From: Candidatus Improbicoccus pseudotrichonymphae
GTDB lineage: Bacteria > Bacillota > Clostridia > Oscillospirales > Acutalibacteraceae
Length of the DNA: 64,000 bases
Reading direction: 5' to 3'
Assembly: GCA_036322855.1 (NCBI GenBank)
Contig: AP027924.1
Location: forward strand, 61,361 to 125,360
Positions 10,884 through 31,138 of this stretch are shown one piece after another. Under the pieces are notes generated by a model. It was given only the letters and a program-made list of their open reading frames with translations. It did no database searches and was not told the origin of the DNA. Position 1 is the stretch's first letter. Every line of letters begins with the position of its first letter. Both the position numbers and the translations under genes were made by a program.

Positions 10884-12584
10884 TTAGATTACCCTTGTTA
10901 ATCTTTCTTCTTTTCTTCCGAAGGCCTTTTGTGAGCTTGGAATTTCGGCCTTCTTGAGTTTTGGCATTTCGACTTTACCAATAAAGTTGTAATAGATTTC
11001 GATTTTTCGAAATACTTCTTTACCGATTTGTTCTCGGTGATGAACTATGATTTTATCTATAAATTCATGAAGAATCTCGTAAGTAAGTTCATTCATATTT
11101 GAGTGTTTTCGGGCTATTTTCAAAAAAGCGTCGCTATTCATTTCATGGTTCTTTTCCTCTGTAACTATTTCTTTCAGATATTTTATTCTTTGTTTGGGTT
11201 CTAATTGTTCGTCTTCGAACTTTATTGAAAGTTTTAGAAATTTTTCCTCGTTTAGAATGCCCAAGGCTTTGTCTTCGTAAACTTTTTCAAATAAAACATC
11301 AAGTTCATTGTTTCTTTTTAAAGCTAATTCTAAATTTTCTTGATTTTTTTGTTGTTCCATTTGAATTCTTTTATAATTCTCGTTGACAACAATCTTTACA
11401 AACTCATCTTCAAATTTGTTTGCAAACTGTATGATCTCATAAATTTTGTTTCTTATGTTATGAGTCAGACTATCAAGTCTTATATGATGTGTCTTGTTGC
11501 ATAAACCATTTCTGTGTCTATTATTAAAACAAGAAAAATATTTGTTGTCCTGGTTGTCGTGTGTATATTTGAAATTTAGGTTTGCCCCACAACTACTACA
11601 TTTAAGTAACCCCGAAAACATGTTTCTTTCAACGACATTTTTTGATTGTCTGAATTTGGTTTTATTAAATGTCTTTTGAACATCTTCGAATAATTGGCGA
11701 CTTATTATTGGTTTATGCACATCTTTATGAATTTCCCATTCTTCTTTGGGATTTGAAACTTGAACTTTAACTTTAAAAGATTTTTTTCTAGTCTTGAAGT
11801 TTATAATGTCTCCACAGTATGATTGATTTTTCAAAATTCTGTTTACATTTTCTTCTGTCCATAGATATTTATCTCTATGAACTTTAATAGCAGGCTTTTT
11901 GTAACCTTTTTCGGCTGCATATTGGGATGGAATTAAAACTTTTTCTTTTCTGAGAGTTCTGGCAATTTTAGTTGTGCTTTCACCGGCTGATCTCATACTA
12001 AAGATTTTTCTTACAATCTCGGCAGCTTCTGGATCTATTTCCCAAGTTTTGGTATCTTTGTTTAATTTATAACCGTAGGGAGCAGATGTACCAATTGGCA
12101 GACCTTGTTTGCTTTTTAATCTTAAAGTAGACTTTACTTTGCGGCTTATGTCTTTACAGTAAAATTCATTAATGATATTTCTGAAAGGCGTAAAGTCGTC
12201 TTCGCCTTGTTGGCTGTCTACTCCATCGTTTACGGCAATAAATCTTACGTTATGCATGGGTAGTAGATTTTCTGTGAGTTTTCCGACTTCTAGGTAGTTT
12301 CTTCCGAGTCGAGACATATCCTTAACAATTAAAGTTTCTATTCTTCCTTGTTCAATTAGATCATATAATTCTTTGAAGCCCTTTCTTTTGAAAGTCACTC
12401 CCGAAATACCATCATCTATAAAGATTTGAAGATTTCTAAATTTGTTTCTATTGGCATAATCTGTTAAAAAAGCTTTTTGATTGGCAATACTGTTTGATTC
12501 TCCTTCTTGTTCATCCTCCCTTGATAGTCTTAAATATAAAGCGGTTATTCTTTCTTCCGCAATGTAATTTGCTAAATTTAACAT
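10884..12584 (-). CDS. large serine recombinase (TndX/TnpX-like, with DUF4368-like C-terminal domain)
   Basis: ALYLRLSREDE catalytic-Ser motif, DDGISG, VKDMSRLGRNY, Cys-rich zinc ribbon (CSSCGANL), C-terminal FIDKIIVHH...IEIYYNFIG. Confidence 0.88.
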   Translation of the reverse strand: MLNLANYIAEERITALYLRLSREDEQEGESNSIANQKAFLTDYANRNKFRNLQIFIDDGISGVTFKRKGFKELYDLIEQGRIETLIVKDMSRLGRNYLEVGKLTENLLPMHNVRFIAVNDGVDSQQGEDDFTPFRNIINEFYCKDISRKVKSTLRLKSKQGLPIGTSAPYGYKLNKDTKTWEIDPEAAEIVRKIFSMRSAGESTTKIARTLRKEKVLIPSQYAAEKGYKKPAIKVHRDKYLWTEENVNRILKNQSYCGDIINFKTRKKSFKVKVQVSNPKEEWEIHKDVHKPIISRQLFEDVQKTFNKTKFRQSKNVVERNMFSGLLKCSSCGANLNFKYTHDNQDNKYFSCFNNRHRNGLCNKTHHIRLDSLTHNIRNKIYEIIQFANKFEDEFVKIVVNENYKRIQMEQQKNQENLELALKRNNELDVLFEKVYEDKALGILNEEKFLKLSIKFEDEQLEPKQRIKYLKEIVTEEKNHEMNSDAFLKIARKHSNMNELTYEILHEFIDKIIVHHREQIGKEVFRKIEIYYNFIGKVEMPKLKKAEIPSSQKAFGRKEERLTRVI

Positions 12585-12933: not shown

Positions 12934-13447
12934 ATTTATAATTTATAATTTTAATAATTTGTTACTGAAATTGTGATTAATAATGTAAATAGTAATTTAA
13001 ACATTTTGATTATAATTTCGGTTCTTGAAATAACATTACTTTTCTAGTTCTAGTTTACAGACCAAAGTTTCATACGAGTTTCACGTCCGCGGGTTAGCTA
13101 GCCCCCGGCAGTCGTCTTGCCTCATTAGAAACCCACTTCCAAGTTAAAGTTTTCGTTTCTAACTTACTGACTCGACTGAAGTATCATTAGAAAATACAGG
13201 TTCTTCCGTTGGTTATTAAAGAGTAGCTGTATTCGTTAATCATGCAGATATTGTATTTAGCAATATTGCAAATTAACTGTCCTTTAGTCTTTTTATTCAA
13301 TTGTCAAAGCTCACTTTTACTCTTGCTATGTACCTTACATCTTAGAACGTAAAAGATTCTAAATTTGGTTAGAGTAATTTTTATTGTTTTAGAAGGGCAG
13401 AAAAAAGTCCTTCTATATATAGGGCGTTGAGAATGGCAAACGTCAGG

Positions 13448-14142: not shown

Positions 14143-16137
14143 CTAACTAATTCTTTGCCAATAATAACAAGTAACATTTGCTAATGTTCCTGAGCCATTC
14201 AAAGTCCATGAGCCTCCAAAATAAGTGCTTGGATTTGTTGAATTTACACTGATATATATAGAACCTATTGGGTAAAACGGATTTGGATATGCTTTTTCGT
14301 TTCCAGTTTTTAGTTGAATTTGATTTGAAGTGATCGTATCGGACAAAGTTATTTGGTTAATTTTAAAGTTATCGTTGCCGGTGTTTGTGCTTTGATCTTT
14401 GTAATATTGCAGATGTAAATACCAAACTTGGCCTTTTGTTAGAGTATAGCTTGCACTTGATGAAGATGAGCCACTTGCGTGTATGAATCGACCTGTTGTG
14501 GTTGTTGAGCTTGGATGTGATGAAGATGTGTTAGCTAAAACATTGCCATAATCATAGTTTGATTCAGATGAAATTGTATAATTTATTGTGACAGTGGCAT
14601 CGTTTTCATGATTTGTCATATCTATTTTTAAACATGTGTTTGAAGTTGAGTTTGCTATTCCTTGATTATTGCTTGTGAAAACTCCGTTGCTATAAGTGAA
14701 ATAGTAGCTATCGTTGGAAACTATTGTATATGATTCATTCCAATCACTTATGATGTCGTAGTTTAATGTCTGATTTCCATTTAAGATATCTACATCAAAT
14801 GAATTGTCGTTTACTGGAAATTTATTGACTCCGACAGATATTTTTTGTGTATCAAAAAACATTATCGGAAGTCCTTTAGCCAAAGTTTGTGAATAAGTTA
14901 TAGAATCAAACTGATCAGCTATTGTGAATTCAAAGTTCCATGAGATTGTGTTGTCAAAGATGGTGGTATAGCTGGTATTATTTTCAATTTCTGTATAATC
15001 TGACCAAATATCACTTGATGTAGGTCTATTTCTATACTTTATGTAGTTAATAGAGTTTTTACCGTTAACACTTGATATTTGAGCATCTACTTTTAGATTT
15101 GTTTCAGATTCAAAATTATTTATTCTTGCTAGAGAGATAGCTACCGTTGGCGGCAACCAATCATAGATGGTTATAGTTTTTGAGATAGTTGTTGAATTTC
15201 CTCTGGAATCTATGGCTTGTATACTAATATTTGTATTTGATGAGAGATTTATAGCTCCGAAATTAATGGTTCTTGCTGATGTGTAATTATATGTAGTCCC
15301 GTTAAATGTAAGTTTATAACTGCTGATTGTAGCTGAATTTTTACCTGCGGCAGAAGTAAAAGTAACTGTTAGATTTGACTTGTTTCTTACAATCCATTGA
15401 TCATTGTTTGTTATATTTACTACATTTGAATTTGTATCTTGATATGTAATTTGAGAACTACTAAAAGTTGGATTTGAATTTGTAACATAAAATGTAAAAC
15501 TTCTACTTGCTGCTCCTATATATGTGCTTCCATTATAGGTTTCACACCATAAAGTTCCAGTTCCACTATTTGAATTTGGTATCTTTGCATAAAAAGAAGT
15601 AGGAATCGTCCAAGTATAGCTAGTTCCTACGTTTCTGGCAAATATTTCCCAACCATCACCTATATCATAATATAACATGTGTGTGAAATAAGAAGAAGCT
15701 CGACTAATTGTAATACTTGTTGTGCTTCCAATATTACCATTTCCACCAGAAAATGAGCTTGCTCTTGGAATTGTTGTGAGTGTTTGAGAATAACTTTGTT
15801 CACTTGAGCTAACAGTACTCATGCTAAACCATGAGCTACAAGTTAGAGTTTTAGAACCGTCGCTATTATGCGAAATATCTAAAGTTTTTGAAAATAAAAT
15901 TATTCCATTTTCTGTTATTTTTTGATCCGAAGTTATGCTGGCGCTATAGGTAGTTCCATCTATTTTACAATAAATAGTTCCTGTACCATAAGTAGTATAG
16001 CCGGTGTTTGTGCGTCTTACTCTTACGTAAACATAAACATTAGAAGTGTTATTTGAGATATTTTGGCTATTTTGTGTGATTGTTATTGTATATTTTATAT
16101 ATTGATTGGTAGTAGACATATCTGATGAGGTGGACAT
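14143..16137 (-). CDS. phage tail fibre / receptor-binding-type structural protein (DUF859-like N-terminus), full length
   Basis: 664 aa, S/T/N-rich. N-terminal block with NTSNVYVYV..IDG..HNSDGSKTL recalls siphovirus DUF859 proteins. Follows a tail minor-structural gene. Confidence 0.55.
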   Translation of the reverse strand: MSTSSDMSTTNQYIKYTITITQNSQNISNNTSNVYVYVRVRRTNTGYTTYGTGTIYCKIDGTTYSASITSDQKITENGIILFSKTLDISHNSDGSKTLTCSSWFSMSTVSSSEQSYSQTLTTIPRASSFSGGNGNIGSTTSITISRASSYFTHMLYYDIGDGWEIFARNVGTSYTWTIPTSFYAKIPNSNSGTGTLWCETYNGSTYIGAASRSFTFYVTNSNPTFSSSQITYQDTNSNVVNITNNDQWIVRNKSNLTVTFTSAAGKNSATISSYKLTFNGTTYNYTSARTINFGAINLSSNTNISIQAIDSRGNSTTISKTITIYDWLPPTVAISLARINNFESETNLKVDAQISSVNGKNSINYIKYRNRPTSSDIWSDYTEIENNTSYTTIFDNTISWNFEFTIADQFDSITYSQTLAKGLPIMFFDTQKISVGVNKFPVNDNSFDVDILNGNQTLNYDIISDWNESYTIVSNDSYYFTYSNGVFTSNNQGIANSTSNTCLKIDMTNHENDATVTINYTISSESNYDYGNVLANTSSSHPSSTTTTGRFIHASGSSSSSASYTLTKGQVWYLHLQYYKDQSTNTGNDNFKINQITLSDTITSNQIQLKTGNEKAYPNPFYPIGSIYISVNSTNPSTYFGGSWTLNGSGTLANVTCYYWQRIS

Positions 16138-16292
16138 AATTTCACTCCAGATTTTTAAATTTCAAATCAAAAAATAAAATTAATTAAAGATAAAAATAAA
16201 AAACTCCATCTAAACCGATAGAGCTAATTGTTATTTACTTTTTAAATTTTGTTTTATTTATCTTAATTCATTAATTCGTTTAATTTATTAAT

Positions 16293-16954
16293 TTATACCA
16301 AAGCAACAACACCTATTCCCGTGTTTGTTTCAGTGTCAAGTTTAATAAATCTTAGTCTATTCGATAGCGTTATTTCATGCTCAATTACTGACTTTTCCAT
16401 GTGAAATTCATCTTTTGAGACCCAATAAAGTGGAGTCGTTCCATCTATATTGTAACCACAAAAGCCAATGTTGGCATTCATCCTTATGGTTGTGCCATCG
16501 TCGCAATAAATATTGATGCCTTCTTTGTTTACTTCACAGATTAGAGTGTTTGAATCATTATAAAGTTCGATTTTACCTGATTCATTAAGGTTTGAACCTA
16601 ATTTCAGAGTTCCTCCTTTTACTAAGTCTGCCGTAAGATGAAGAGTCTGAATCATTTGCATATCAAGTTGACCATCAATGGTCCAGGCACTGTTGAAAGT
16701 TCCGTTGATTCCGTTCTGAGAGAAACCGATTCCCCCTGAATTTATTCTCATTACATTAGTTGCTTCTTCTTTAGGTATTTTGTCTAAAATTAAGATTTGG
16801 CTACCATCATAAATTACATAAGAGTTTCCAAGGACACTATTTATCTTATTTGTTGCCTCAATTAGTTCTTTTTCTAATTTAGCAGTAGTTTCTCCGGCAC
16901 TTTTGTCTACTTCTTCTGTTATTTTGTTTTCAATATTAGTTATTAAGTTTTTTA
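16293..16954 (-). pseudogene. phage minor structural (tail) protein, 5'-truncated by IS insertion (left arm copy)
   Basis: Open frame runs up to the IS end at 16955 with no start. RINSGGIGFSQNGINGTF..TIDGQL motif; near-identical to 18053..18716. Confidence 0.6.
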
Positions 16955-17779
16955 GAGCCTGTTCCCACTAAAAAATTGATACAAAAACAAGAGCGAGTTG
17001 TATAAATCCAATGAACATAATATCTAATTTTTCAAATCTACAAAATATACGACGAAATCCACAAATTCGTCGAAAAAGACGTTCAATTTCATTACGCCTT
17101 TTATAGAGAGTTTTATCGTATTCCCAAGGTTTTTTACGATTTTTCTTAGGAGGCACAATAGGACTAAAATTAAGTATTTGAGCAGTATATCGAGTAAGAT
17201 CATCTTCATAGGCTCTGTCCATAACTAAAGATATATATATAAGTATCAGGTTTATCTACCGTTTCCATAAGAAGTCTTCCATGCGGTGCATCATGACACA
17301 CTGGCCTTCACTTAAAATAAAATCAACAGCTCTTTTTCATTTGCGCATATCATATGAACTTTTGTAGTTAGCTCACCTTTAGAGCGTCCTATGGCTTGTT
17401 TTCCGTTTTTTTAAAGCCCCACAAGCGTCTGGGTGTACTTTGACGTTTCTAGAATCCATAAATAAAGCCTCAGGATTAAGTTTAAGAACATTTTGTACGT
17501 GCAATTCTCTAAATAATTTTTCAATAATACCGACCTCAACCCAACGCCTAAAACGCTTGTATATCACGTGCCAATTTCCAAATTCAGACGGCAGTTTCCT
17601 CCATTTACAGCCGTTTTCACAGATATACAGTAATGCATTTATAAACACCAGATTGTTTACTGCCACATTACCTCTTTGTACAGGCAATAAATTTTTAATT
17701 TTTTCATATCCTTCTTCTGTTATTTCCATCTATTTTATTATAGCATTTTTTGTTTATTTTTTTTAGTGGGAACAGGCTC
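16955..17779 (-). mobile_element. IS5-family insertion sequence (IS427/IS1031-like), transposase decayed
   Basis: 19-21 bp terminal inverted repeats GAGCCTGTTCCCACTAAAA / TTTTAGTGGGAACAGGCTC. N-terminal ORF LLYICENGCKWRKLPSEFGNWHVIYKRFRRW and C-terminal ORF MDRAYEDD..RNEIERLFRR; the middle carries stops and frameshifts. Confidence 0.8.
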
Positions 17780-18716
17780 TAACGGATATCACAATGCTCT
17801 TGAAATAGATCTAAGAACGAAAGCACTAAACCATTTAAACAAAAATTCAGTTCCAAAGGTAAACTATTCAATTTCTGTATATCTAGAAAATGTTAATAAC
17901 AATGAAAATATTAATATCTCAGATGTAGGAGACATAATTTATGTAAAACATCCAAAATGTAGAATTGATATAGAAACCAGCGTTATAGCCCTTGAATATG
18001 ACGTTATAAGCAACAAAATAACAAAAATTGAGTTCGGAAACTTTAAAAATAATCTAAAAAATTTAATAACTAATATTGAAAACAAAATAACAGAAGAAGT
18101 AGATAAAAGTGCCGGAGAGACTACTGCTAAGCTAGAAAAAGAACTAATTGAGGCAACAAATAAAATAAATAGCGTCCTTGGTAACTCTTATGTAATCTAT
18201 GATGGTAGCCAAATCTTAATTTTAGACAAAATACCTAAAGAAGAAGCAACTAATGTAATGAGAATAAATTCAGGGGGAATCGGTTTCTCTCAGAACGGAA
18301 TCAACGGAACTTTCAACAGTGCCTGGACCATTGATGGTCAACTTGATATGCAAATGATTCAGACTCTTCATCTTACGGCAGACTTAGTAAAAGGAGGAAC
18401 TCTAAAACTAGGTTCAAACTTAAATGAATCAGGTAAAATCGAACTTTATAATGATTCAAACACTTTAATCTGTGAAGTAAACAAAGAAGGCATCAACATT
18501 TATTGCGATGATGGCACAACCATAAGAATGAATGCCAACATTGGCTTTTGTGGCTACGATATAGATGGGACAACTCCACTTTATTGGGTCTCAAAAGATG
18601 AATTCCACATGGAAAAATCAGTAATTGAGCATGAAATAACGCTATCGAATAGACTAAGATTCATTAAACTTGATACAGATTCAAACACCGGAATAGGAGT
18701 TGTTGCTTTGGTATAA
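17780..18716 (+). pseudogene. phage minor structural (tail) protein, 5'-truncated by the IS (right arm copy)
   Basis: The ORF only opens inside the IS inverted repeat. Sequence from about 18053 onward is near-identical to the reverse complement of 16293..16954. Confidence 0.6.
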
Positions 18717-18916
18717 AATATGTTAATTGATAACAAAAATGACTAATAACAAAAATTTTAATAATTTTAATAATAATAAACAAAATAAACGTCTAGATTG
18801 ACGCTTTATTTTTTTGCCTTTTCTTACCTATCTTAATCATCTTATCTTTTATTACTTTCTTATTTTTTATTTTTTATTACTTATATCTTATTTTTCTTAC
18901 TTTTGGAGCTGAAAAT

Positions 18917-19507
18917 ATGTCCACCTCATCAGATATGTCTACTACCAATCAATATATAAAATATACAATAACAATCACACAAAATAGTCAAAATGTCTCA
19001 AACAACACTTCTAATGTTTATGTTTACGTAAGGGTAAGGCGCACAAATACTGGATATACGACTTATGGTACAGGAACTATTTATTGCAAAATAGATGGAA
19101 CTACCTATAGCGCCAGCATAACTTCAGATCAAAAAATAACAGAAAATGGAATAATTTTATTTTCAAAAACTTTGGATATTACCCACAATTTTGACGGTTC
19201 TAAAACTCTAACTTGTAGCTCATGGTTTAGCATGAGCACTGTTAGCTCAAGCGAACAAAGTTATTCTCAAACACTCACAACAATTCCAAGAGCAAGCTCA
19301 TTTTCTGGTGGAAATGGTAATATTGGAAGCACGACTAGTATTGCAATTAGTCGAGCTACGACAAATTTCACACACATGTTATATTATGATATAGGTGATG
19401 GTTGGGAAATATTTGCCAGAAACGTAGGAACTAGCTATACTTGGACGATTCCTACTTCTTTTTATGCAAAGATACCAAATTCAAATAGCGGAACTGGAAC
19501 TTTATGG
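18917..19507 (+). pseudogene. 3'-truncated second copy of the DUF859-like tail fibre gene
   Basis: First ~196 codons are near-identical to 14143..16137. The frame breaks exactly where tRNA-Glu begins (..GTGTLWW* versus ..GTGTLWCETYNG). Confidence 0.65.
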
Positions 19508-19582
19508 TGGTGACTCGGACGGGATTCGAACCCGTGTTACCGCCGTGAAAGGGCAGTGTCTTAACCACTTGACCACCGAGCC
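19508..19582 (-). tRNA. tRNA-Glu (anticodon UUC) with encoded CCA
   Basis: Hand-folded from the reverse complement: acceptor GGCTCGG/CCGAGTC, anticodon loop CTTTCAC, T-loop TTCGAAT. Confidence 0.8.
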
Positions 19583-19988: not shown

Positions 19989-20937
19989 TCAATAAATATG
20001 AATATCAATCTCGGATCTATATTTTTCTAATGCTAATGCCAATTCTTCAGATATCAAAAGATAATCGCCTCTTTCAGTTACACAAACTCTAATATTAGTT
20101 ACACGAAAATCAGGACCAGCTTCGTGCAATAGATCATGTGCATGACATCTAACATAGTTAGAATAGTCTTTTCCGGTGGATTCGCTTGGTTGTTTTTCTC
20201 CTAGTTCATAAACAAACTTAGAGTATTTATTTTCCAGTTCTCCCATTATTTTTTCTCTTATTATATCACTAGGAGGAGAAAAAAATAAAGCTCTTGCTAT
20301 GCCCATGGATTCTGCAACGGATGATTCAAATATATATAATCTGCCACCACGTCTACTAGATTTACCTAAATTTTCATAATACCCTCCTTTAGGATCTTTC
20401 TTATCTACTAATCTGCCTATATTACAAGTTTGGCGAGTTTTTCCACACATTTCGATTTGTCTAATTTCTGGTTTCTCTTTTGGTTCTTCTTCTTCTTCTT
20501 CTTCTTTTGGTTCTTCTTTTGGTTCTTCTTTTTTTATTTCTTCTTCTTCTTCTTCTTCTTTTATTTCTTCTTCTTCTTTTTTTGGTTTTGCCTTTCTAGG
20601 ACTAATTGCATCATATATAACTAAAATACCAACGCCTAAGACACTAATGCCAGCAATAGTTTTAGCTAAACTTGAAAGCTCTTCAGATTTATCAACCGTA
20701 TCGTCCTTTTTACTTTCATCTCCATTTTCATTTTTGTCGTTTTCTTTAACATTACTTTTATCTTCCGATACTTTAACGTTATCTTCGCATTTCGTTGTTT
20801 CAACAGTTTTCTTGCTGCTATCTACAAGTCGATCATCAGACCCAACAGCCCCAACAAAAGACTGACAACACATAATAACAGCTAAAATAGAAGATATTAT
20901 TTTATTGTTTTTATTAATCTTCTTGCTATTTTTATTT

Positions 20938-20966
<29 letters not shown>
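19989..20966 (-). CDS. 5'-module family member A: signal peptide, acidic spacer, TM helix, E/K-rich tract, C-terminal domain type 1
   Basis: N-terminus MKKESNGIGENKNSKKINKNNKIISSILAVIMCCQSFVGA is shared by all family members. C-terminal domain is related to member D (TCNIGRLV, YSKFVY, AGPDFR, SEEL). Confidence 0.75.
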
Positions 20967-21060
<94 letters not shown>

Positions 21061-21112
21061 AACCTTTCCTCCTGATATTAAAATATAAATCAGCGAAAAC
21101 ACTGATAAATTA

Positions 21113-21140
21113 ATTATAGCATTTTGAATTTTGCTGTCAA
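21113..21140 (-). promoter_or_regulatory. sigma-70-type promoter of member A (TTGACA-16-TGCTATAAT)
   Basis: Reverse complement reads TTGACAGCAAAATTCAAAATGCTATAAT; the same motif is upstream of B, D, E and F. Confidence 0.6.
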
Positions 21141-21150
21141 ACAGAATTAT

Positions 21151-21267
21151 GCGAAGCATTTTAATGCGACACTATTTAGCGGTGACTTTGTCTCCGCAAG
21201 AGACAATCTAGAGCCGCATGTTTCTTTGGGTTTCACCCGTTTCTTTGCGTCAAAGAAATGGGTGAAA
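21151..21267 (+). other. conserved three-hairpin element, copy 1
   Basis: GCATT/AATGC; GCGGT..TTGTCTC-loop-GAGACAA..GCCGC; TTTCACCCGTTTCTTTG-cgt-CAAAGAAATGGGTGAAA. Confidence 0.6.
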
Positions 21268-21354
21268 AAGAAATAAACTTTAATATGTTTAATTTAAATA
21301 CTTAGAGATAAAAATTTTATAAATATTATTTTTAAAATTATTTTTATTATCTTA

Positions 21355-21382
21355 TTGACAGCAAAATTCAAAATGCTATAAT
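21355..21382 (+). promoter_or_regulatory. sigma-70-type promoter of member B (TTGACA-16-TGCTATAAT)
   Basis: TTGACA at 21355-21360, extended -10 TGCTATAAT ending at 21382. Confidence 0.6.
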
Positions 21383-21434
21383 TAATTTATCAGTATTTTT
21401 GCTGATTCATATTTTAAAATCAGGAGGTAAAATT

Positions 21435-22283
21435 ATGAAAAATAGCTTCATAAAATCTCTCATGAATTCTCTCAATTCGAGAGAGAGAGAGAGAGAGAGG
21501 TCTCTCAGGGGTTTCTTTATGAAAAAAGAAAGCAATGGAATAGGTGAAAATAAAAATAGCAAGAAGATTAGTAAAAATAATAAGATAATTTCTTCTATTT
21601 TAGCTGTTGTTATGTGTTGTCAGTCTTTGGTTGGGGCTGTCGATCTTCCTTTGACTGTGGATGATAGTAAATTTGTTGAGCCTGTGGGCAAAGATTTGGA
21701 AAATGATAATGATAATTTAGAAAGTAGTAGCGAAGACGAAAATAATTATAAAGACGGCGAAGGCGAAAATAGCGAAGCAGAAAATAACGAAAACAAAAAT
21801 ATAAACAATAGTAAGTCATTTTCAATTTTAGCAAAGGTCTGTATTGGTGTTGGTTCTGGCGTCGGTTTTATTGTTGCTGCTGTCGTCGCAGACTACCTTA
21901 TTGGTAATAGATATACTGTCGAAATTTCTAACTCAAGATATCCGATTTTTGAAATTGATTTTGAAAACCTTGGTTTTTATTCAAAAAAAGATCCATTTGA
22001 TAAAAAATATTATTTGACCATGAATTTCAAAAATTCAGGAAAAATAAAATTTGTGAGAACAATATCGGATTACTATTCTCGCCCAATTAGGTTTGTAACA
22101 AATTCAAATGTTGGAAATGTCAGATCTGATGAAATCGATAAATTTAGTGATTATTCTAAATTTATTATTGATATTTTTAAATGTAAAGAACATGATGGTT
22201 CTAACGCCTTAAAAAAATATTTTAGTAAAAAAATGTTGAAATTAATGCAAAAGGTATCGAGTCATATATTCATTATTTGCTGA
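21435..22283 (+). CDS. 5'-module family member B (leader fused in frame); C-terminal domain type 2
   Basis: MKNSFIKSLMNSLNSRERERERSLRGFFMKKESNGIGENKNSKKISKNNKIISSILAVVMCCQSLVGA..; acidic/N-rich spacer, TM helix (VCIGVGSGVGFIVAAVVA). Confidence 0.7.
   Translation: MKNSFIKSLMNSLNSRERERERSLRGFFMKKESNGIGENKNSKKISKNNKIISSILAVVMCCQSLVGAVDLPLTVDDSKFVEPVGKDLENDNDNLESSSEDENNYKDGEGENSEAENNENKNINNSKSFSILAKVCIGVGSGVGFIVAAVVADYLIGNRYTVEISNSRYPIFEIDFENLGFYSKKDPFDKKYYLTMNFKNSGKIKFVRTISDYYSRPIRFVTNSNVGNVRSDEIDKFSDYSKFIIDIFKCKEHDGSNALKKYFSKKMLKLMQKVSSHIFIIC
21479..21498 (+). repeat. dinucleotide SSR (GA)10 inside leader B
   Basis: Counted directly. Confidence 0.95.
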
Positions 22284-22362
22284 GTAAAGTTAAAAATAAA
22301 AACCGAAATTTCCGTCTAATTGATGGACTTTTTTTTAAGCTAGAAATCGAAGGTGTTAAAGA

Positions 22363-23619
22363 TTGCGAAAGCTTGGTCATGGAAATTATAGCTCCTCTGG
22401 AATTGGCAGACAAAATAAAAGGATACTAGATTGTTTGCGAATATGTGAAGAAAAATGTACTGAAATCTTTGGAAACATTGAAAAAATATGTGAAGAAAAT
22501 TCAAGAAAAGTATTAAAGGCATTCATAGAAAATAAAGTAAGTGAAAATCACTTCAGAGTTTTTACAGGTTATGGGTATGGTAATATCGGAAAAGAAGTTT
22601 TGAATAAATTAGTAAGCCAGATAATGTGCACAGAAAGTGCCCTGGTGGATGAAAATTTTATCAGTGCTACTCACGCCCTGAACGTAAGTTTGTTTGCTAT
22701 AACAAAGCCCGGAGATACGATTTTAAGTGTAACTGGCGCTCCGTATGATACGTTGAAAAAAACTATATACGGTAAAAATACCGGTTCATTACGTGATTTT
22801 GGAATAAAATTTAAAATTTCAAATTTTAAAGATGAAAATTTTTTGGATTTATTAAATAATGATATAAAAGTCATATACATTCAACGTTCTTGCGGATATT
22901 CTTTGAGAGAGAGTTTGAAAATCAGAAATATTGAATCCATAATAAAGAAAATAAAAAAAAGATCTGATGCTTTGATTTTGGTAGATAATTGCTATGGCGA
23001 GTTTGTTCAAGAAAAAGAACCTACAGAAGTTGGAGCTGATTTGATAGTTGGTTCTCTTATAAAAAACCCCGGAGCAGGAATCGCTCCATCCGGAGCTTAT
23101 TTAGCAGGAAAAAGAAACTTAATAGAACTTTGTCTTAATCGTTTTGCTTTCCCGGGAGCAAAGTTGGGAATTGGACCGTCGAAATATAATCGTGAATTAT
23201 TGATGGGTTTTTATTATGCCCCCATGGTCGTAAAAGAAGCATTAAAAACAGCTGTATTTGCGGCCTTATTTTTTGAAACTTTGGGTTTTGAAGTTTCACC
23301 GAAATATAATGAAGAACGCTCTGACATAATACAGGCTATTAATTTTAAAAATAGAGAAAATTTGCTTACTTTTTGTCAGGAAATGCAATCCACGCTCGCC
23401 ATAGACTCTTTTGTAACACCGACACCTTGGAAGATGCCGGGGTACCAAAACGAGATCATAATGTCGTCCGGAGGATTTATATCAGGTTCCACGATAGAAC
23501 TTTCTTGTGACGCTCCGATGCAAAAGCCGTATAGTGTTTTTTTACAAGGCGGGACTAACTTCTACATGTCAAAATTTTCAATACTAAACGCCGCGATGAG
23601 ATTAGTAAATAATCAATAG
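22363..23619 (+). CDS. ynbB: PLP-dependent YnbB / aluminium-resistance family protein (Cys/Met-metabolism lyase-like)
   Basis: KVLKAFIENKVSENHF..TGYGYGNIGKEVL N-terminal block and overall length are typical of this family. TTG start is uncertain. Confidence 0.65.
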   Translation: MRKLGHGNYSSSGIGRQNKRILDCLRICEEKCTEIFGNIEKICEENSRKVLKAFIENKVSENHFRVFTGYGYGNIGKEVLNKLVSQIMCTESALVDENFISATHALNVSLFAITKPGDTILSVTGAPYDTLKKTIYGKNTGSLRDFGIKFKISNFKDENFLDLLNNDIKVIYIQRSCGYSLRESLKIRNIESIIKKIKKRSDALILVDNCYGEFVQEKEPTEVGADLIVGSLIKNPGAGIAPSGAYLAGKRNLIELCLNRFAFPGAKLGIGPSKYNRELLMGFYYAPMVVKEALKTAVFAALFFETLGFEVSPKYNEERSDIIQAINFKNRENLLTFCQEMQSTLAIDSFVTPTPWKMPGYQNEIIMSSGGFISGSTIELSCDAPMQKPYSVFLQGGTNFYMSKFSILNAAMRLVNNQ

Positions 23620-24175
23620 TCTCTTTTAAGAGAGTAGAATTAATTTTTCAAAAATTAAAGATTTTCCATTTGTATGGGAAACTTAGCATAAATTTTTATT
23701 TTTATTTTCATTTTTTGTATAATATTTACATAAATTTTATTACAAGTTAATATTTTTTTAAAGTGCGTACTATGTTGATGTTACCAGAAAAAACGCTAAC
23801 TTTTTGCTTTTTGCCTTTACACGTGTATCCAGCATAGGGCTGTAACCAGGTAATGAAAGTCCGCTATTACAAAAATCCTATAGGTTTCGTAGTAACGATA
23901 AATTATGAGAAAGTCGGCAGGAAGCCATATTATCTTCTTTGCGTAAATAAAGAAGAACAAAATTTTAGGAAACGGCATAAACAGAAAGGAAAAAGGTGAA
24001 AATTGGAAATCGAGAATCAACGGTAGTTGACATGTATTTCGACGGGCAATGGTGCAAGTGCTTACTCCAATGTAATAGGGTGAGGACAATTTCGGGAAAC
24101 AATTTAGCTTTTGATCAGAAAGAAATCAACACCAAGCGTTGAGACAATGCCGACAAAATGTCAATATTTATTTCT

Positions 24176-24257
24176 GCGCCGCCTTGTTTCCTGCAAGGAA
24201 ACATCGTAAGGCGCGATTTCTTTGGGTGTACCCGTTTCTTATAAAAGAAATGGGTAC
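24176..24257 (+). other. conserved hairpin element, copy 2 (divergent; hairpins 2 and 3 with compensatory changes)
   Basis: GCGCC..TGTTTCC-tgca-GGAAACA..GGCGC and GTACCCGTTTCTT-ataa-AAGAAATGGGTAC. Confidence 0.55.
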
Positions 24258-24347
24258 GGAAGAAATAAATTTTATAAAATATTAATTTAAATACTTAGAG
24301 ATAAAAATTTATAAATATATCTTTTCAAAATTTTTCGTGTTATTTGT

Positions 24348-24376
24348 TTGACAAAAAATACTCAAGATATTATAAC
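24348..24376 (+). promoter_or_regulatory. sigma-70-type promoter of member C (TTGACA-17-TATAAC)
   Basis: Position and flanks are homologous to the promoters of the other family members. Confidence 0.5.
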
Positions 24377-24428
24377 TATTTTATCAACATTTATGTTGAT
24401 TCATATTTTAAAATCAGGAGGAAAGGTT

Positions 24429-24528
<100 letters not shown>

Positions 24529-24551
<23 letters not shown>

Positions 24552-25476
24552 TAATGAAAATAATAAGAAGATTAATAAAAACAATAAAATAATATCTTCT
24601 ATTTTAGCTGTTATTATGTGTTGTCAGCCACTCGTCGGGGCTAGTTCTAATACAGATGTCAAAACCTTTAAGGCAGAAAATAACGACAGAGTTGTCGTAG
24701 CAAGCAATGATAAAGTAGTGACCTCTGTAATGAAAAAAAAAGATAATAATAACAGCGGCAACAACAACAACAACAATGATGATGATGATGATGATGATGA
24801 AAAAAACGAAAATACCGAAAAAATTCCCGTGGGTAATATGCTTTCGTTTTTGGGCGGTAGTGCTGTCACGATTTTGACCGCTTTTATTTTGAATAAATTG
24901 AATATCATCAGTTTTGCTCCATCTCAGAATTGGGATTGGGCGAATAGTGATTTTTTTACTTGGGGTAATGTTAAGGAAATCTTGAGAGCACTTGAGCCAA
25001 ATGTGGAGTATTTTGCTATTGTTGCTAATAAAGAAGATGAAGAACCAAATATTGGTTTCTGTAATTATATTGAAATTTTTTGTAATTCATTGGTATTCCA
25101 GATTTTTTCACGTGGAACCAAGAAGTTATTGGTGTTTCTTGAAGAAATTTCACATGATGGTAAAATTGATCCAGGCAGTGACAAAGGAAAAATTAGGTTA
25201 TTTTTTGCTATGAGAGCTCTTTTAATTGCGTGCTATAATATTTCGTCGGACGTGATAAACAAAGAATTTGCAACTAATTTTTTTAGTAAAATACTGCCCA
25301 ATAATAATGAACTGTTTATTCTTTTTAGTTCCGATCAGGATATATCTGATTTATGTCGTCAATTTTACAACATAGAAAAACCAGAAGAAATCACTTTAGT
25401 AATGAAAATAGATGCGATTACTTGGAAATTCAGAGAAAAATATTTTGAAAAAAAAATAGTCTTTGATGAAACTTAG
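24529..25476 (+). CDS. 5'-module family member C; C-terminal domain type 3
   Basis: MKKEKISNNENNKKINKNNKIISSILAVIMCCQPLVGA, N6/D7 homopolymer runs, TM helix (FLGGSAVTILTAFIL), unique ~200-aa C-terminal domain. Confidence 0.7.
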
Positions 25477-25510
25477 TTTAATATTTTAAAAAATGAGGAG
25501 TAGATTTATT

Positions 25511-26548
25511 ATGAGTAAAAATTGTTTAGTGAAGAAAATTTTAGCAATCTTAGTTTTTGGTTTTGTACCTTTTAATGTTTGTGTGTCGGCGTCGAATAGG
25601 TTAGAGGGTCAAAAGACTCAAAAGGTTGCTACTAATCCATCTTTTAAAAAAACTGCAGGAAATACCACAAGTAAGATTAGCCCCATGCCAAGTTTTAAAT
25701 CAGTACTACAGTCATCACCAGAACCACAGTCACCACTACTAACACAAGAACAAATACAACAAATTGAAGCTTTGTTGAAAGAGGTTGGTTTGGAAGAAGA
25801 AGCATATGAAATGCGAGGAATAAAAAATGCAGGTGATTTCATACGGATTATTGAAAAATTAGTTAGATTAATTGGCGAACAAAAAGGAACTTTAATTGAT
25901 CTTGCGGGAACCAACGTTAAATTAAATTCAGAATTAGGTGAACTTGAGGCAACCAACCGTCGTTTAGATTCAGAATTATCGGATTTAAAAAAAAAATTTA
26001 ACGAAACGAGTGATCAAAATACTCTACATACCAAAATTCAGGAATTAAATGAAAAAAATGGTCAACTGATGGCACAACTGCAAAATTCAGAAGCAGAAGT
26101 GTTGGAATTAAAAAGAAAAAATGAACAACTGAATAATGAAAATAGTCAACTGAAAACACAGTTAGATGAACTGCAAAATTCAAATGAGCAACTACTAAAC
26201 AAAATAGATAACCAAACTCAGGAATTAAATGAAAAAAATGATCAACTGAAAACACAGTTAGATGAACTGCAAAGTTCAGAAAAAAAGGTGTTGGTTTTGA
26301 ATGATAAAGTAGGTCTTTTGGAATTGAAATATAAATCGGAATTAAAAGGTTGGTTACAACAAGAGTTACAAAAACTCGAGGAAAGTTTTAGTAGTATGCA
26401 ATTAGTACAAAAAGAAGGCTTTTCACAAGATGTAAAAGAATCGAATGTAAACCGTATGAGATTCCTCTTTTTACAACAATTGCAAGTGCAACGTAAGTTT
26501 CTTTTGAAATGTTATGATTTGAGAAAAAGTATATATTTTGAAGGCTGA
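25511..26548 (+). CDS. secreted coiled-coil protein (companion gene of member C)
   Basis: Signal peptide MSKNCLVKKILAILVFGFVPFNVCVSA, then heptad-like Q/E/N/L repeats (NEKNDQLKTQLDELQ..). Paralogous to 33441..34287. Confidence 0.6.
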   Translation: MSKNCLVKKILAILVFGFVPFNVCVSASNRLEGQKTQKVATNPSFKKTAGNTTSKISPMPSFKSVLQSSPEPQSPLLTQEQIQQIEALLKEVGLEEEAYEMRGIKNAGDFIRIIEKLVRLIGEQKGTLIDLAGTNVKLNSELGELEATNRRLDSELSDLKKKFNETSDQNTLHTKIQELNEKNGQLMAQLQNSEAEVLELKRKNEQLNNENSQLKTQLDELQNSNEQLLNKIDNQTQELNEKNDQLKTQLDELQSSEKKVLVLNDKVGLLELKYKSELKGWLQQELQKLEESFSSMQLVQKEGFSQDVKESNVNRMRFLFLQQLQVQRKFLLKCYDLRKSIYFEG

Positions 26549-26691
26549 TCTGCCATTCTTAGACAATAGTAAGATTTTGATTCTGTAAAGGCGGCTTCTA
26601 AATATCTCTATTTGGGGTTGGGGCGTGTTTTAATTAATTAATTAATATACACTCCCCAATATTTTTTAATTTTTAATCTAGAAATCGCAAA

Positions 26692-28680
26692 TTATTCAGG
26701 TATTTTGTCTTTGTCGTTATTTTTTTCTTTATTTTTGTTATCTTTTTTTTCATTATTTTTTGAATTCTTGTCTAAGTTTTTGTCTTCATCTAATTTCGGT
26801 TCCGGCAACGATGGTTTTTCTCCAACGCCCGATTCGTTACTTACAATTACGTATGCACTACTGTAAATATCCGGCAATCTCACACTATACGCTTTAATTT
26901 CATATACTCCTTCCGTGGCAGGTGCGGTGTAAAGTCCGTTGTTATCTATATTTCCTGTGTTTTTTAATCCAAGTTCCCAACGTATGCGTTTATCATTTAT
27001 TCCATCGATGCTTGCTTCGAATCTTATTTGTTCAAACGGTTTTAAACCTACTGTGTTTGGTTTTATAGTAACTGTAGCATTCTTTTCTAAAATTAGATCT
27101 TTATATGGGTCTTGTTCTTTAACAGGTTTAAACGCCCACCATCTTATATCTATGTGTGTATCGATTGTTTTTTCAAGCAGGCGTACTCCAAGTTTAATAG
27201 TTCCTTTAGAAACATCCACCGCGGCGGCAATTTGGATTGAAGGCACCGATGATTTCAATTCTTCTTCGGAAAAAATACTTTTGTCTCCGAAAATTAAAAG
27301 TTCTTTTTCATATTCCTGAATATTAGCACGATTTACGGCACAAGCTAACACGCCAATTTCTCCCAAACCCAATCCATGAACAAATTCGTACGAGTAATAT
27401 ATTTTGCCGGGTTTGGCGTTAAAACCTAAATTTATTCTTTCGATGCCGGACAAAATATTGTTTTTTTCATTGTTGTTTATGTTATTTTTTTTGTCATTAT
27501 TATTATCAGCATCCGCGTAGGTATTATTTTTTTCGTTGCTATCTTTGCCTTCGATTGAAATAGCCTTCGAATCGATTTTTTTTTCGGCTCTGATTTTTTT
27601 AACATTTGTTCCTTGAAAATCTTGCAAAAGTTTCAATAATTCATTGCTGTATAAAAACTGTTCGAATGGATGTTTTTTAAATTCTTCTATAAAATATGAA
27701 GTTTTATTGTTTATTATATTAAACTTTGCAAGATATATATTTTTGTTTGCCGCCAATTCTAAAATTTCATCAAAATGCCTGGAATAATAGTCTCTCACTA
27801 TTAAATTTCTTATATCTTCTGTGACAACTTGTATCGGTATGCTTATATTTTTTTCTATATTGTATTTTTCTTTTCCTATGTTCAAAACAAATGTATCTTT
27901 CGGAATAATCATTTCTGTTAAAACAGATTCCTGGGCATCACAATACAAAAAATAGTCTTTTTGAATACTTTTATAACTTGTTATTTCAGATTCATCGTAT
28001 TTTATTATCAAATTTCTGTTACTGGAAGTCTCATTAACTTTAAACAAGTTGCCGTACAATTCAAAATTGTAATTTATTGCTTCTTCTATTTTTTCTTTTT
28101 CAAAAAATAAACGTATTTGAGTAATTTTATTGGAATTAATATATTTTTCAGTTTCCATTGTGATTTTTACATTATTTTTATTATAAATTTCGGTTCTTTT
28201 TTTCACAAGAAAATCAAGCGTTAGCTCACTTTCTTCTGATATATCCGAAGTTAAATATAGTTCGTAATCTTCACTTATTCTGTTGAATTGTTTATTTTCC
28301 CCCATTTGTTTGCCGGCGCTGGCTAATGAAAACGTACTTTCGTTTAAATTTTCTTTGTATCTTATACATAAATATACCGTGTGGTTGTTTTTGTTTTCTT
28401 CAAAACCTTTTATCACATTTAATTTTCTTACACACGGTTCCGAAACAATTATTTCCCTCCCTAGGTGATCAATTGCCATACCGGTTTCAAGAGAAAATGT
28501 ATGATTATCCATAAGAATTACATCAAGTCCCGAAACAATTCCTACTCCACCCAACATACGACTGCAAAGATAACGTTTTGAATTAAAATATTTTTGTTCA
28601 TTTATAAAATCCTTTGCCGTCATAAGTTTACCGAAAAAATAATTGTTACGTTGATTTGTGTAATAATGGCCATTATTCAT
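26692..28680 (-). CDS. baseplate-associated protein of contractile injection systems / phage tails, with a C-terminal Ig-like (Big_2-type) domain
   Basis: Translationally adjacent to the gpI-like gene. N-terminal block FFGKLMTAKDFINEQKYF..RMLGGVGIVSGLDV..GMAIDHLGREI resembles proteins I recall next to gpI in eCIS loci. C-terminus has NGLYTAPATEGVYEIKAYS. Confidence 0.5.
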   Translation of the reverse strand: MNNGHYYTNQRNNYFFGKLMTAKDFINEQKYFNSKRYLCSRMLGGVGIVSGLDVILMDNHTFSLETGMAIDHLGREIIVSEPCVRKLNVIKGFEENKNNHTVYLCIRYKENLNESTFSLASAGKQMGENKQFNRISEDYELYLTSDISEESELTLDFLVKKRTEIYNKNNVKITMETEKYINSNKITQIRLFFEKEKIEEAINYNFELYGNLFKVNETSSNRNLIIKYDESEITSYKSIQKDYFLYCDAQESVLTEMIIPKDTFVLNIGKEKYNIEKNISIPIQVVTEDIRNLIVRDYYSRHFDEILELAANKNIYLAKFNIINNKTSYFIEEFKKHPFEQFLYSNELLKLLQDFQGTNVKKIRAEKKIDSKAISIEGKDSNEKNNTYADADNNNDKKNNINNNEKNNILSGIERINLGFNAKPGKIYYSYEFVHGLGLGEIGVLACAVNRANIQEYEKELLIFGDKSIFSEEELKSSVPSIQIAAAVDVSKGTIKLGVRLLEKTIDTHIDIRWWAFKPVKEQDPYKDLILEKNATVTIKPNTVGLKPFEQIRFEASIDGINDKRIRWELGLKNTGNIDNNGLYTAPATEGVYEIKAYSVRLPDIYSSAYVIVSNESGVGEKPSLPEPKLDEDKNLDKNSKNNEKKDNKNKEKNNDKDKIPE

Positions 28681-28703
28681 CTAATTTTCCTCCGCAATTA
28701 ATT

Positions 28704-29873
28704 TTAATCTATCATAGTTATGCCTTCTTCATTGTTTATTTTCTTGCTAATAAGGCTATATTTTTCTCTTGTTAAAAAAGAATTAATTCCAATATAACAA
28801 TGATGACCCAGAAAAATTCCATTTTGCAATATAACTAAATTACAAACTGTTCCCGCCGGGGACATATCTCTTATTATGTGTAAAAGATTAGCATAATCCT
28901 CACTTGTTTTTATGTTATTTTCGTTTAAAAATACATTAAATACAAAAGAATTATCTCCGAAAAGCGAATCTATAATTTTTTTTTCTCTTACGTAAAACTC
29001 ATTTTCAGTAACTTTAAACTGTTCAATAACTATTGGTTCTACACCAATGAATTTTTCAACCATAAGTTTTATTGATTTAATGGTTCCTTTTGTTTTAAAT
29101 ATTTCAATAGCATTGGAAACCATATCTCTTAATTTATCTTCTCGCCAAACATCTACATCTCTAATTCCCAACCATCGAGATATCCATTTTAAAAAATCAT
29201 AACTATTATTTAATGGTTCAAAATTCGCGGGTATAAAATCTATTTTGTCGTCCAAATCGTCGTACATACTTTGGAAAATAGCAATAAACCTGGAAAAAAA
29301 AGAATCTTCTCCACTTCTTTGATATATTTCCGGCAAATACTCAATGAAGTTGTTATGTGGAAATTCTATTTTCATACTTCTTATTTTTATAATGCTCGAA
29401 CTATCATAACTTATGGCTTCTATACAAACCCATAGATATCTTCCTTTAAGTTTAAACAATGGCATGTCAACAGGATTTTCAAAAGAAACATGACTTAATT
29501 TTGAAAATATACTTAATTTACTGCCTACATCTACGTTTTTGTTAAGCAAGAAATTATTCAGATTTGTAAAATTTATATCACCATCCAAATTTAACCAAAA
29601 ATCGTGTTCATCACTTGCTAAAATACTAACTTTAATTTTTGAATTTCTTGAAACTTCTGAGTCAAATCTGATCCTGTGCCAAACTGTTTCTTTTTCAAAA
29701 CTATCCAGGCTTATTGAAATAAAAGCAGAATTTTTATCTGAATTAAAATCAAAAACAAGACTGTCGTCTTCAAAATTTACCCCGCTGAGTACATTTTTGT
29801 AGCACCAATCTTCTCTATTATTAAACATAAAAAATTTTGTACCGCGAGGCATTTCAAATCCTCCATTTACCAA
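28704..29873 (-). CDS. phage P2 gpI-like tail protein I / Afp12-like baseplate wedge protein
   Basis: C-terminal half has YLPEIYQ..FFSRFIAIFQSMYDDLDDKIDFIPANFEP..FLKWISRWLGI..W.EDKLRDMVSNAIEIFKTKGT, the characteristic gpI pattern. Confidence 0.7.
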   Translation of the reverse strand: MVNGGFEMPRGTKFFMFNNREDWCYKNVLSGVNFEDDSLVFDFNSDKNSAFISISLDSFEKETVWHRIRFDSEVSRNSKIKVSILASDEHDFWLNLDGDINFTNLNNFLLNKNVDVGSKLSIFSKLSHVSFENPVDMPLFKLKGRYLWVCIEAISYDSSSIIKIRSMKIEFPHNNFIEYLPEIYQRSGEDSFFSRFIAIFQSMYDDLDDKIDFIPANFEPLNNSYDFLKWISRWLGIRDVDVWREDKLRDMVSNAIEIFKTKGTIKSIKLMVEKFIGVEPIVIEQFKVTENEFYVREKKIIDSLFGDNSFVFNVFLNENNIKTSEDYANLLHIIRDMSPAGTVCNLVILQNGIFLGHHCYIGINSFLTREKYSLISKKINNEEGITMID

Positions 29874-30133
29874 ATTATTTTTGCATTTTAATGCACTAAT
29901 TATTCAGTATTGGAAATTATTACAAAAAACAATGCGGATTATTGTTTTTGATTATTCTCACAGTTCCTTTATATTTTGACAATAGCCCGATTTATATATG
30001 ATTAACATGCAAGTTTTTTCTAAAAATACGAGAAAATATTCCGTATTTTTTTTCTAAATAATACAAATCACGAATACAAACGATTCGTATGTCGTAAATC
30101 CATATCTTACAATAAATAATCTTATATCAACAT

Positions 30134-30974: not shown

Positions 30975-31003
<29 letters not shown>
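30134..31003 (-). CDS. 5'-module family member D; C-terminal domain type 1 (related to A)
   Basis: MRKESNGIGENKNSKKISKNNKIISSILAIIMCCQPLVGA; TM helix; TCNIGRLV, YSKFIY, AGPGFR, SEEL as in member A. Confidence 0.7.
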
Positions 31004-31106
<103 letters not shown>

Positions 31107-31138
31107 AATTTTACCTCCAAAAGTGTCGACAAATATAG

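Follow-up and report, generated by a model that had tools for sequence, protein, structure and literature searches.

The element described here is a lineage-specific, structure-constrained module of about 130 nt that occupies the distal edge of a promoter cassette. Four copies (copies 1-4) are present in the stretch of DNA that we analyzed (64,000 nt, hereafter the window), each on the + strand, at the loci named in a preliminary description of this DNA, where we confirmed the sequences. Each comprises three hairpins, and two of these, hairpins 2 and 3, carry the evidence for structural constraint. Among the functions that we weighed, a 5' boundary insulator, or terminator-like RNA at the cassette edge, ranks first. 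Less probable still are a cruciform operator and an ssDNA recombination site, followed by a relic, a duplex operator and, last, a small RNA. Even so, this first choice is a tentative one, and on balance we would not expect it to be correct.

The window comes from Candidatus Improbicoccus pseudotrichonymphae CfP3-15, with a protein search matching the ORF at 19989-20966 to CfP315_0071 at 100%. This clostridial bacterium lives as an endosymbiont in the termite-gut protist Pseudotrichonympha and has a circular genome of 1,007,634 bp (31.4% G+C, 805 CDS, 94 pseudogenes) that is devoid of polA and encodes 18 small-GTPase genes; the genome paper is silent on promoters, repeats, transposases and integrases, and the cassette too goes unmentioned (PMC10579323). 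CfP315_0071 and 44 more proteins found in the same search make up a family of at least 45 paralogs within this single 1,007,634-bp genome, to which all family homologs were confined in a search among 5.8 billion proteins. The paralogs share an N-terminus, MKKESNGIGENKNSKKI.KNNKIISSILAV.MCCQ (the family label is 'MKKESNGIGENK...MCCQ'), several members have Rab/Ras or TBC domains, and for about 21 of the 45 the annotation includes a leader, upstream and in frame, of the form MKN.FIKSLMNSLNS(RE/RK)n. Six cassettes of promoter plus leader lie in the window, two of them on the - strand. A cassette spans about 290 bp and is ordered as element, AT-rich spacer, consensus promoter, 5' UTR, (GA)n leader ORF and N-terminal anchor.

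In every copy the element lies 76-92 nt upstream of a + strand consensus sigma-70 promoter, within the 70-110 nt proposed earlier; with the element ends as previously drawn, the distance to the -35 boxes at 21355, 24348, 31500 and 34879 is 86-92 nt. The promoter downstream of copy 1 (21355-21382, +) matches the consensus at 12 of 12 positions, TTGACA-16-TATAAT, with an upstream TG, and its equivalents at 31500-31527 and 34879-34906 (+) also match at 12/12, while copy 2 is followed by TTGACA-17-TATAAC (24348-24376, +). Between element and -35 box runs the conserved AT-rich spacer, at 21279-21354, 24270-24347, 31427-31499 and 34800-34878 (+). Copies 1 and 3 lie between divergent 12/12 consensus promoters, so that the two - strand cassettes share these copies with + strand cassettes. 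The - strand promoter at 21113-21140 (12/12) belongs to the paralog at 19989-20966, and 9-10 nt separate its -35 box from the element on the left; that at 31139-31167 (-) belongs to the paralog at 30134-31003. The element is nevertheless tied to the + strand cassettes, with the orientation of the downstream gene in all four copies. As had been pointed out, no obvious promoter would transcribe the element in the divergent pairs. Copies 2 and 4 are found downstream of + strand genes or gene fragments that have no convincing terminator of their own, and in copy 4 the element marks the left end of the homology. The dyad of hairpin 3 falls almost exactly at the midpoint between the divergent -35 boxes, at 109/106 nt in copy 1 (21249) and 169/164 nt in copy 3 (31336, insert included).

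Five promoters of the window are perfect 12/12 TTGACA-16/17-TATAAT matches, four of them with a preceding TG, which is unusually strong and uniform for a multigene family. In every cassette, the short leader ORF just 5' of the main ATG contains a simple-sequence tract: (CT)14.5 at 20988-21016, (GA)10.5 at 21479-21499, (GA)17.5 at 24473-24507, (TCTT)8.8 at 31027-31061, and (GA)9.5 at both 31603-31621 and 35002-35020. The pattern suggests phase variation at the level of translation, which in this intracellular symbiont would affect no fewer than 5% of genes.

In copy 1 (21149-21278, +), hairpin 1 (21156-21167) is GCATT-tt-AATGC and overlaps an alternative pairing, ATGC-gaa-GCAT. Hairpin 2 (21179-21217) has an outer stem GCGGT/GCCGC and an inner stem TTGTCTC/GAGACAA, with a T-rich linker on its 3' side, and the arms of hairpin 3 (21219-21278) are 28 nt long, with GGGT bulged out on the 5' side and a G.T pair at 21239/21259. 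Copy 2 (24128-24269, +) represents a divergent lineage. It had been described as retaining hairpins 2 and 3 only, but a diverged hairpin 1 persists at 24136-24150, where GCGTT (24136-24140) and AATGC (24146-24150) flank gagac and one A-T pair has become G.T. Hairpin 2 of this copy (24176-24214) pairs GCGCC with GGCGC in the outer stem and TGTTTCCT with AGGAAACA in the inner stem; hairpin 3 occupies 24216-24266. In copy 3 (31177-31426, +), hairpins 1 and 2 lie at 31183-31195 and 31207-31245, and the arms of hairpin 3 (31247-31273 and 31399-31426) are separated by an insert of 125 nt that replaces the apex (31274-31398, +). The insert is itself a long imperfect hairpin and has no second copy within the window; its center, in which runs of A and of T flank ACATAC-acaaa-GTATGT, resembles a bidirectional terminator of the AT-rich type. 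Copy 4 (34671-34799, +) has hairpins at 34678-34689, 34701-34741 and 34743-34799, with a 2-nt apex insertion in hairpin 2 and a 3-nt deletion in the left arm of hairpin 3.

The three hairpins differ in how convincing they are. Hairpin 1 is weak, with 4-5 bp and no double change, and we regard it as unproven. Hairpin 2 folds at -15.7 to -19.2 kcal/mol and has a 5-bp G/C clamp in all four copies. Hairpin 3 is a palindrome with 28-nt arms that are 82% complementary, which places it among the best inverted repeats of the window; its + strand folds into an outer stem of 9 bp and a core of 14-16 bp that includes one G.T, with GGG(T) bulging out on one side between them. Four blocks, TTTCTTTGGGT, ACCCGTTTCTT, AAGAAATGGGT and AGAAATAAA, are unchanged in all four copies, including copy 2. 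The GCGAAGC 'DNA mini-hairpin' of hairpin 1 occurs 8 times in the window against 2.75 expected, with five of the occurrences outside the element and none in copy 2, and this excess is only a hint.

These structures are considerably more stable than expected by chance. RNA folds of copies 1, 2 and 4 reach -43.8 to -48.2 kcal/mol (z -3.7 to -7.1) and that of the 254-nt region of copy 3 reaches -79.2 kcal/mol (z -7.3), with none of 200 shuffled sequences folding as well; with DNA parameters, both strands fold well (z -5.4 to -7.8). We then ran a covariance model of hairpins 2 and 3 (38 pairs) unfiltered over the whole 64 kb. The only matches were copies 1-4, at 126.8, 89, 61 and 111.2 bits, followed by the reverse strand of the same palindromes and then by noise below 13 bits.

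The hairpins 2 of copies 2 and 3 align over 39 nt without gaps and differ at 18 of these positions, and still all 12 core pairs are kept. When the hairpin 2 of copy 3 was mutated in simulation at 18 sites, a mean of 5.5 pairs survived, and 12/12 pairs were retained in 5e-5 of the trials; the minimum free energy of hairpin 2 in copy 2 (-18.6, against a mean of -6.9 for the mutated controls) was reached by 0.2% of mutants. In the model alignment of copies 1, 4 and 2, 98.1% of cells pair and 7 of the 38 pairs have changed on both sides, one in the outer stem of hairpin 2, four in its inner stem and two in hairpin 3, as compared with 0-1 two-sided changes when the partners were slid by 1-3 columns. 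An alternative alignment of the inner stem of hairpin 2, shifted by one pair, converts the four substitution pairs into one, together with a paired deletion and a paired insertion, and lowers the count to about 4-5 besides these paired indels; we take four to seven coordinated changes as the honest range that the sequences would allow. The compensatory double changes reported previously are confirmed and exceed what had been claimed. All of the covariation derives from one divergent copy, so that there are in effect two lineages and the power is that of a single pairwise comparison. Selection on + strand pairing of hairpins 2 and 3, and not on their sequence, is well supported by the simulation and the model alignment, though through one divergent lineage; the structural case is stronger than first proposed and is still thin, with four paralogous copies from two lineages.

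An inversion of hairpin 2 was considered as an artefactual source of the copy 2 sequence and rejected: the reverse complement of copies 1 and 3 matches worse (14-17 against 21-23 of 39 positions), and the bulge and the G.T stay on the same side. A coding reading was likewise rejected, with the 20-codon ORF that starts at ATGCGA in copy 1 being frameshifted in copy 3.

The coordinated changes also bear on two readings in which pairing itself would not be the selected property. In the first, the element would be a non-functional relic, left by a MITE-like or BOX-like palindromic insertion or by an old inverted duplication, and its arms would owe their complementarity to intrastrand template switching (quasi-palindrome correction) and to gene conversion instead of selection. 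Long palindromes in general do undergo such correction by mutation, the genome is decaying, as its pseudogenes attest (PMC10579323), copy 3 resembles terminal inverted repeats around 125 nt, and hairpin 1 is weak. Palindrome correction, however, should erase the G.T in the core of hairpin 3, which persists in all copies, including the old lineage of copy 2; the nested short stems of hairpin 2 (5 + 8 bp) are poor substrates for template switching; and the retention of 12/12 pairs after 18 changes would be improbable. There is also no target-site duplication, and in the window no copy lies away from the cassettes. We consider a relic distinctly unlikely. In the second reading, a dimeric or tetrameric transcription factor would bind the duplex at four GTTTCTT/AAGAAAT motifs and co-regulate the family. 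The four invariant blocks, the symmetry of the four motifs about the dyad of hairpin 3 and the location of the site upstream of promoters are in line with such an operator, but a site read as sequence would not behave like hairpin 2, which has undergone 41-46% sequence change with full pairing. The changes in hairpin 3 are symmetric, its arms are far longer than usual half-sites, and the invariant blocks may simply reflect a gene-conversion gradient that rises toward the promoter. This makes a duplex operator improbable in our estimation.

The remaining mismatches are distributed unevenly between the strands. All five one-sided changes in the model alignment are U.G or G.U on the + strand, the G.U in the core of hairpin 3 is constant in all copies, and hairpin 1 of copy 2 contributes one more + strand G.U. 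The sole non-pair is a C.A at the loop-closing position of hairpin 2 in copy 1. The tally is about 7 to 1 in favor of G.T on the + strand (one-sided binomial ~0.04), with no transversion mismatch, and in every copy the + strand folds better than the - strand, by 4-7 kcal/mol with RNA parameters and by 3-4 with DNA parameters. It had been argued that G opposite T on the + strand, which would be a mismatch on the other strand, speaks for a folded + strand and against a protein-binding palindrome. The + strand pattern and the energetic preference stand and favor a + strand fold over a protein-bound duplex palindrome, but the strand-specific G:T argument is suggestive only. Given the positive GC skew of the + strand, strand-biased mutation could account for part of the G.T bias or mimic it.

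This strand bias counts against a structural operator made of DNA. In that reading, the AT-rich DNA behind the very strong promoters, which in two cases are divergent, would be strongly underwound, and a cruciform or hairpins would extrude from the palindromes in it; these would absorb or sense supercoiling, or bind a structure-specific protein, so as to tune the family promoters. A cruciform needs both hairpins, and G.T would then be expected equally on either strand, along with transversions, whereas we observe about 7 against 1 and no transversions. In addition, the 76-92 nt that separate the element from the -35 box of the + strand promoter are far for direct action. On the other hand, such an operator needs no promoter of its own, its position upstream of promoters is appropriate, and hairpin 3, with 28-nt arms, a 3-nt spacer and an AT-rich center, is of a suitable form. 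Both strands fold with DNA parameters, as noted above, and the dyad of hairpin 3 lies midway between the divergent -35 boxes in copies 1 and 3. [quoted passage not shown] An upstream inverted repeat with pairing favored over sequence is likewise what we find, on comparative evidence. The inverted repeats between vlsE and its silent cassettes are conserved in presence, not in sequence or length, and have been proposed to form cruciforms that aid gene conversion (PMC11499132). The element shares with the ospC and vls repeats a location upstream of a promoter that serves a variable gene of surface or host-interaction function; unlike them, it has strand-biased mismatches and belongs to the cassettes of a dispersed family of at least 45 genes, with no expression-site/silent-cassette architecture and no sequence relationship to either. 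Taken together, we regard the cruciform operator as rather unlikely.

An insulator at the 5' boundary, acting at the RNA level, is the reading that we rank first. We suggest that transcription entering a cassette from upstream on the strand of the gene could allow hairpin 2, a GC-clamped 39-nt hairpin followed by AUGUUUCUUUGGGUUU, to fold. Hairpin 3 would fold also, giving a 22-25 bp duplex of the size of an RNase III substrate, and the two hairpins together might terminate the RNA that comes in from upstream, or pause or process it. As a result, each phase-variable gene would be driven by its own consensus promoter and (GA)n switch alone, and in the divergent pairs the element may have been carried along as part of the duplicated cassette. 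Several observations are consistent with this model. Structure is kept and sequence is not (18/39 changes with 12/12 pairs in the hairpin 2 of copies 2 and 3; seven two-sided changes), and the element is the most diverged and fastest-evolving part of the cassette, with copy 2 sharing 51-59% identity with the other copies in hairpin 2, 63-70% in hairpin 3 and 81-92% in the spacer. Rapid sequence drift with pairing preserved is typical of terminators. The one-sided changes are all G.U on the + strand, which is the more stable strand, and the orientation is that of the downstream gene in 4/4 copies. The hairpin 2 itself is stable and GC-rich, like that of an intrinsic terminator, and in every copy, including copy 2, five T are found within the first 8 nt on its 3' side, while a terminator scan flags a small terminator-like + strand hairpin inside the element. 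Finally, copies 2 and 4 follow + strand genes or fragments that have no convincing terminator, and copy 4 has the element at the left end of homology.

The same comparison with intrinsic terminators that act as upstream insulators brings out the weaknesses of the model. The element resembles them in its GC-clamped hairpin, in the T-rich stretch that comes next on the same strand as the downstream gene, in conserving structure amid sequence drift and in tolerating G.U. It differs in that its T-tract begins with A and is interrupted by G and C (ATGTTTCTTT), whereas clear terminators in the window have unbroken T-runs, for example 22311-22327 followed by CTTTTTTTT, and the terminator scan did not call hairpin 2 itself. 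Moreover, a co-directional unit precedes copies 2 and 4 but not the other two copies, 1 and 3, whose upstream neighbor is a divergent promoter, which leaves nothing obvious to terminate. Hairpin 3 has no T-tail on either strand, and its invariant core and conserved one-sided GGG(T) bulge would be superfluous for termination. With their sequences GAA and GCA and C-G as the closing pair, the apical loops correspond to the GNA triloops that stabilize DNA mini-hairpins rather than RNA. The number of copies, four in what amounts to two lineages, also counts against the insulator.

A small RNA gene with its own promoter, comprising hairpins 2 and 3 and acting in trans on the family mRNAs, had also been put forward. 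The strand-specific fold would suit such an RNA, and in copy 2 a promoter-like TTGAGA-18-AATATT (24139-24168, 9/12) would start transcription right at hairpin 2. This site is not conserved, however: copies 3 and 4 have no site of at least 9/12 inside or just upstream of the element, and the nearest 9/12 match of copy 1 (21056-21084), about 65 nt upstream of the element, is unrelated to that of copy 2. With no conserved promoter-like site inside the element or upstream of it and no terminator after hairpin 3, the proposal no longer holds up well, and we judge it most improbable. The element had earlier been left without assignment to a known RNA family, and it has no Rfam match: an Rfam search of the whole window at the gathering threshold returned tRNAs and pemK RNA only, and at a permissive E-value over 20000-36000 the element overlapped only miRNA models, at 18-23 bits against cut-offs of 70-230. 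The pattern AAGAAATGGGTN5AGAAATAAA was found in 12 genome, 21 metagenome and 3 viral stretches, but in each the match stops at the pattern, as expected for chance, and none is a homolog. Among plasmid and phage records, distant DNA similarity extended over only 25-28 nt (E >= 0.04).

The history of the cassettes is a mosaic one. Copy 4 groups with copies 1 and 3 in the element and with copy 2 in the spacer (92%), and the switch occurs at the 3' base of hairpin 3. The spacer has two alleles, one in copies 1 and 3 and the other in copies 2 and 4, that are discordant with the grouping of the element, suggesting gene conversion over short tracts whose limits are the base of hairpin 3 and the -35 box. 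Such exchange raises the question of whether the element could itself be an ssDNA recombination or gene-conversion site at the cassette boundary, folding on the lagging-strand template. It would then be recognized by a recombinase, as an attC-like or IS200/IS605-end-like site, or stall a fork and so start exchange between paralogous cassettes, and it would help the promoter/leader/anchor module to spread to new genes. The pairing is + strand-specific, and the positive GC skew suggests that this strand serves as the template for lagging-strand synthesis in this region. None of the four elements departs from the + strand, despite two of six cassettes being on the - strand. Further points in favor are that the element forms the edge of homology, that the mosaic breakpoint coincides with the 3' base of hairpin 3, that host-like Rab GTPase and TBC fusions in the family share the module, that the genome is without polA (PMC10579323), and that the vls inverted repeats offer an analogy (PMC11499132). 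The breakpoint, though, is one event that was noticed post hoc, the copies in the window occur only with family cassettes, and no conserved second end lies 3' of family genes. A Pfam scan of 30 of the larger ORFs in the window found no HUH, RAYT, Y1, TnpA, integron integrase or tyrosine recombinase, and the sole recombinase that it identified is a prophage-type large serine recombinase (10884-12584). We thus view an ssDNA site as unlikely.

The resemblance to integron attC sites deserves separate comment. Like them, hairpin 3 is a strand-specific imperfect fold at a cassette boundary; its base and its one-sided bulge are conserved, and the length of its apex ranges from 3 to 125 nt. The attC consensus has R'' RYYYAAC and R' GTTRRRY at the hairpin base. 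In the element, the base of hairpin 3 (TGTTTCTTT / AAAGAAATA, + strand) fits this consensus on neither strand, so that the R''/R' core sites are lacking. Neither IntI, attI nor an array of promoterless cassettes is present in the window; the cassettes here carry their own 12/12 promoters and are dispersed, not arrayed, and the site is 5' of the gene, not 3'. In its most specific form, the attC-like reading would have the element mark the 5' boundary of a portable module of promoter, phase-switch leader and membrane anchor or signal. Recombination started at hairpin 3 would place this module before acquired host-derived genes (Rab GTPases, TBC/RabGAP domains) and at the same time promote conversion between genes within the set of 45 or more cassettes. 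We hold this scheme to be highly doubtful.

Membership of attC, REP or IS200-end families, which had been listed among the candidates, finds no support in the core motifs, second ends or HUH, RAYT and integron integrase genes of the window. Like pneumococcal BOX, REP/BIME, Neisseria Correia and IS200/IS605-derived PATE repeats, the element is a modular, multi-hairpin, non-coding repeat near promoters. Correia hairpins are RNase III substrates. Unlike these repeats, its copies in the window are found only inside family cassettes, and it has no terminal repeats with target duplication, no GTAG-type REP head (GT[AG]G) and no nearby RAYT or TnpA. For IS200/IS605 ends or PATEs we found neither a conserved repeat 3' of family genes nor a second end, and for a MITE, the arms of hairpin 3 in copy 3 do flank 125 nt, but with no target-site duplication and with an insert that is unique in the window. 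Two further candidates were rejected. An invertible promoter switch of the C. difficile cwpV/flgB or M. penetrans mpl type would have arms around the promoter, which is not the arrangement seen, and the element has one orientation in 4/4 copies. GAGCCGCAT resembles the 5' strand of group II intron domain V, but its pairing partner is missing. The element is a lineage-specific case of the known structure-constrained inverted-repeat modules near promoters.

Rab GTPases are rare outside eukaryotes, and they are among the roughly 5% of genes (at least 45 of 805 CDS) that share one 5' cassette in this 1-Mb endosymbiont. An element selected for structure offers the best present approach to two questions, namely what controls or insulates these putative effectors and how the cassette spreads to acquired genes. 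If the ssDNA or recombination reading were true, it would represent a new route of effector-repertoire assembly, a system for the capture of promoter and signal. If the insulator or cruciform reading were true, the element would be a clean natural example of a promoter-upstream element in which pairing, and not sequence, is selected.

Several features of the surrounding DNA were noted in the course of the analysis. The 5' UTR of the family (21390-21435 and equivalents) has small hairpins, ATCAG-tatttttg-CTGAT and CTGATT..AAATCAG, adjoining the Shine-Dalgarno sequence, and at copy 3 (31528-31550) the gene 31642-33240 has lost these hairpins through a 21-nt deletion. The family member at 46784-48220 (-) has the conserved N-terminus and neither the promoter/leader cassette nor the element; its apparent fusion partner is another upstream ORF, signal-peptide-like in character, and it contains a long tandem repeat with a 9-nt period (47526-47990). 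Remnants of a phage or contractile-injection-like character are interleaved with the family genes (9364-9819, 10884-12584, 13070-13190, 14143-19513 and 26692-29873) and include DUF4280 (PAAR-like), the large serine recombinase, pemK RNA, DUF859 siphovirus-type proteins, a prophage tail endopeptidase fragment and a P2 tail protein I-like gene. A non-coding region of higher G+C at 23725-24125, 5' of copy 2 and downstream of a promoter-like TTTACA-17-TAATAT (23725-23753), had no Rfam match and may be a pseudogene or an uncharacterised RNA. The window also contains a gene for a TLC-type ATP/ADP transporter (4014-5507, -), in agreement with the published description of the symbiont as an 'energy parasite'.
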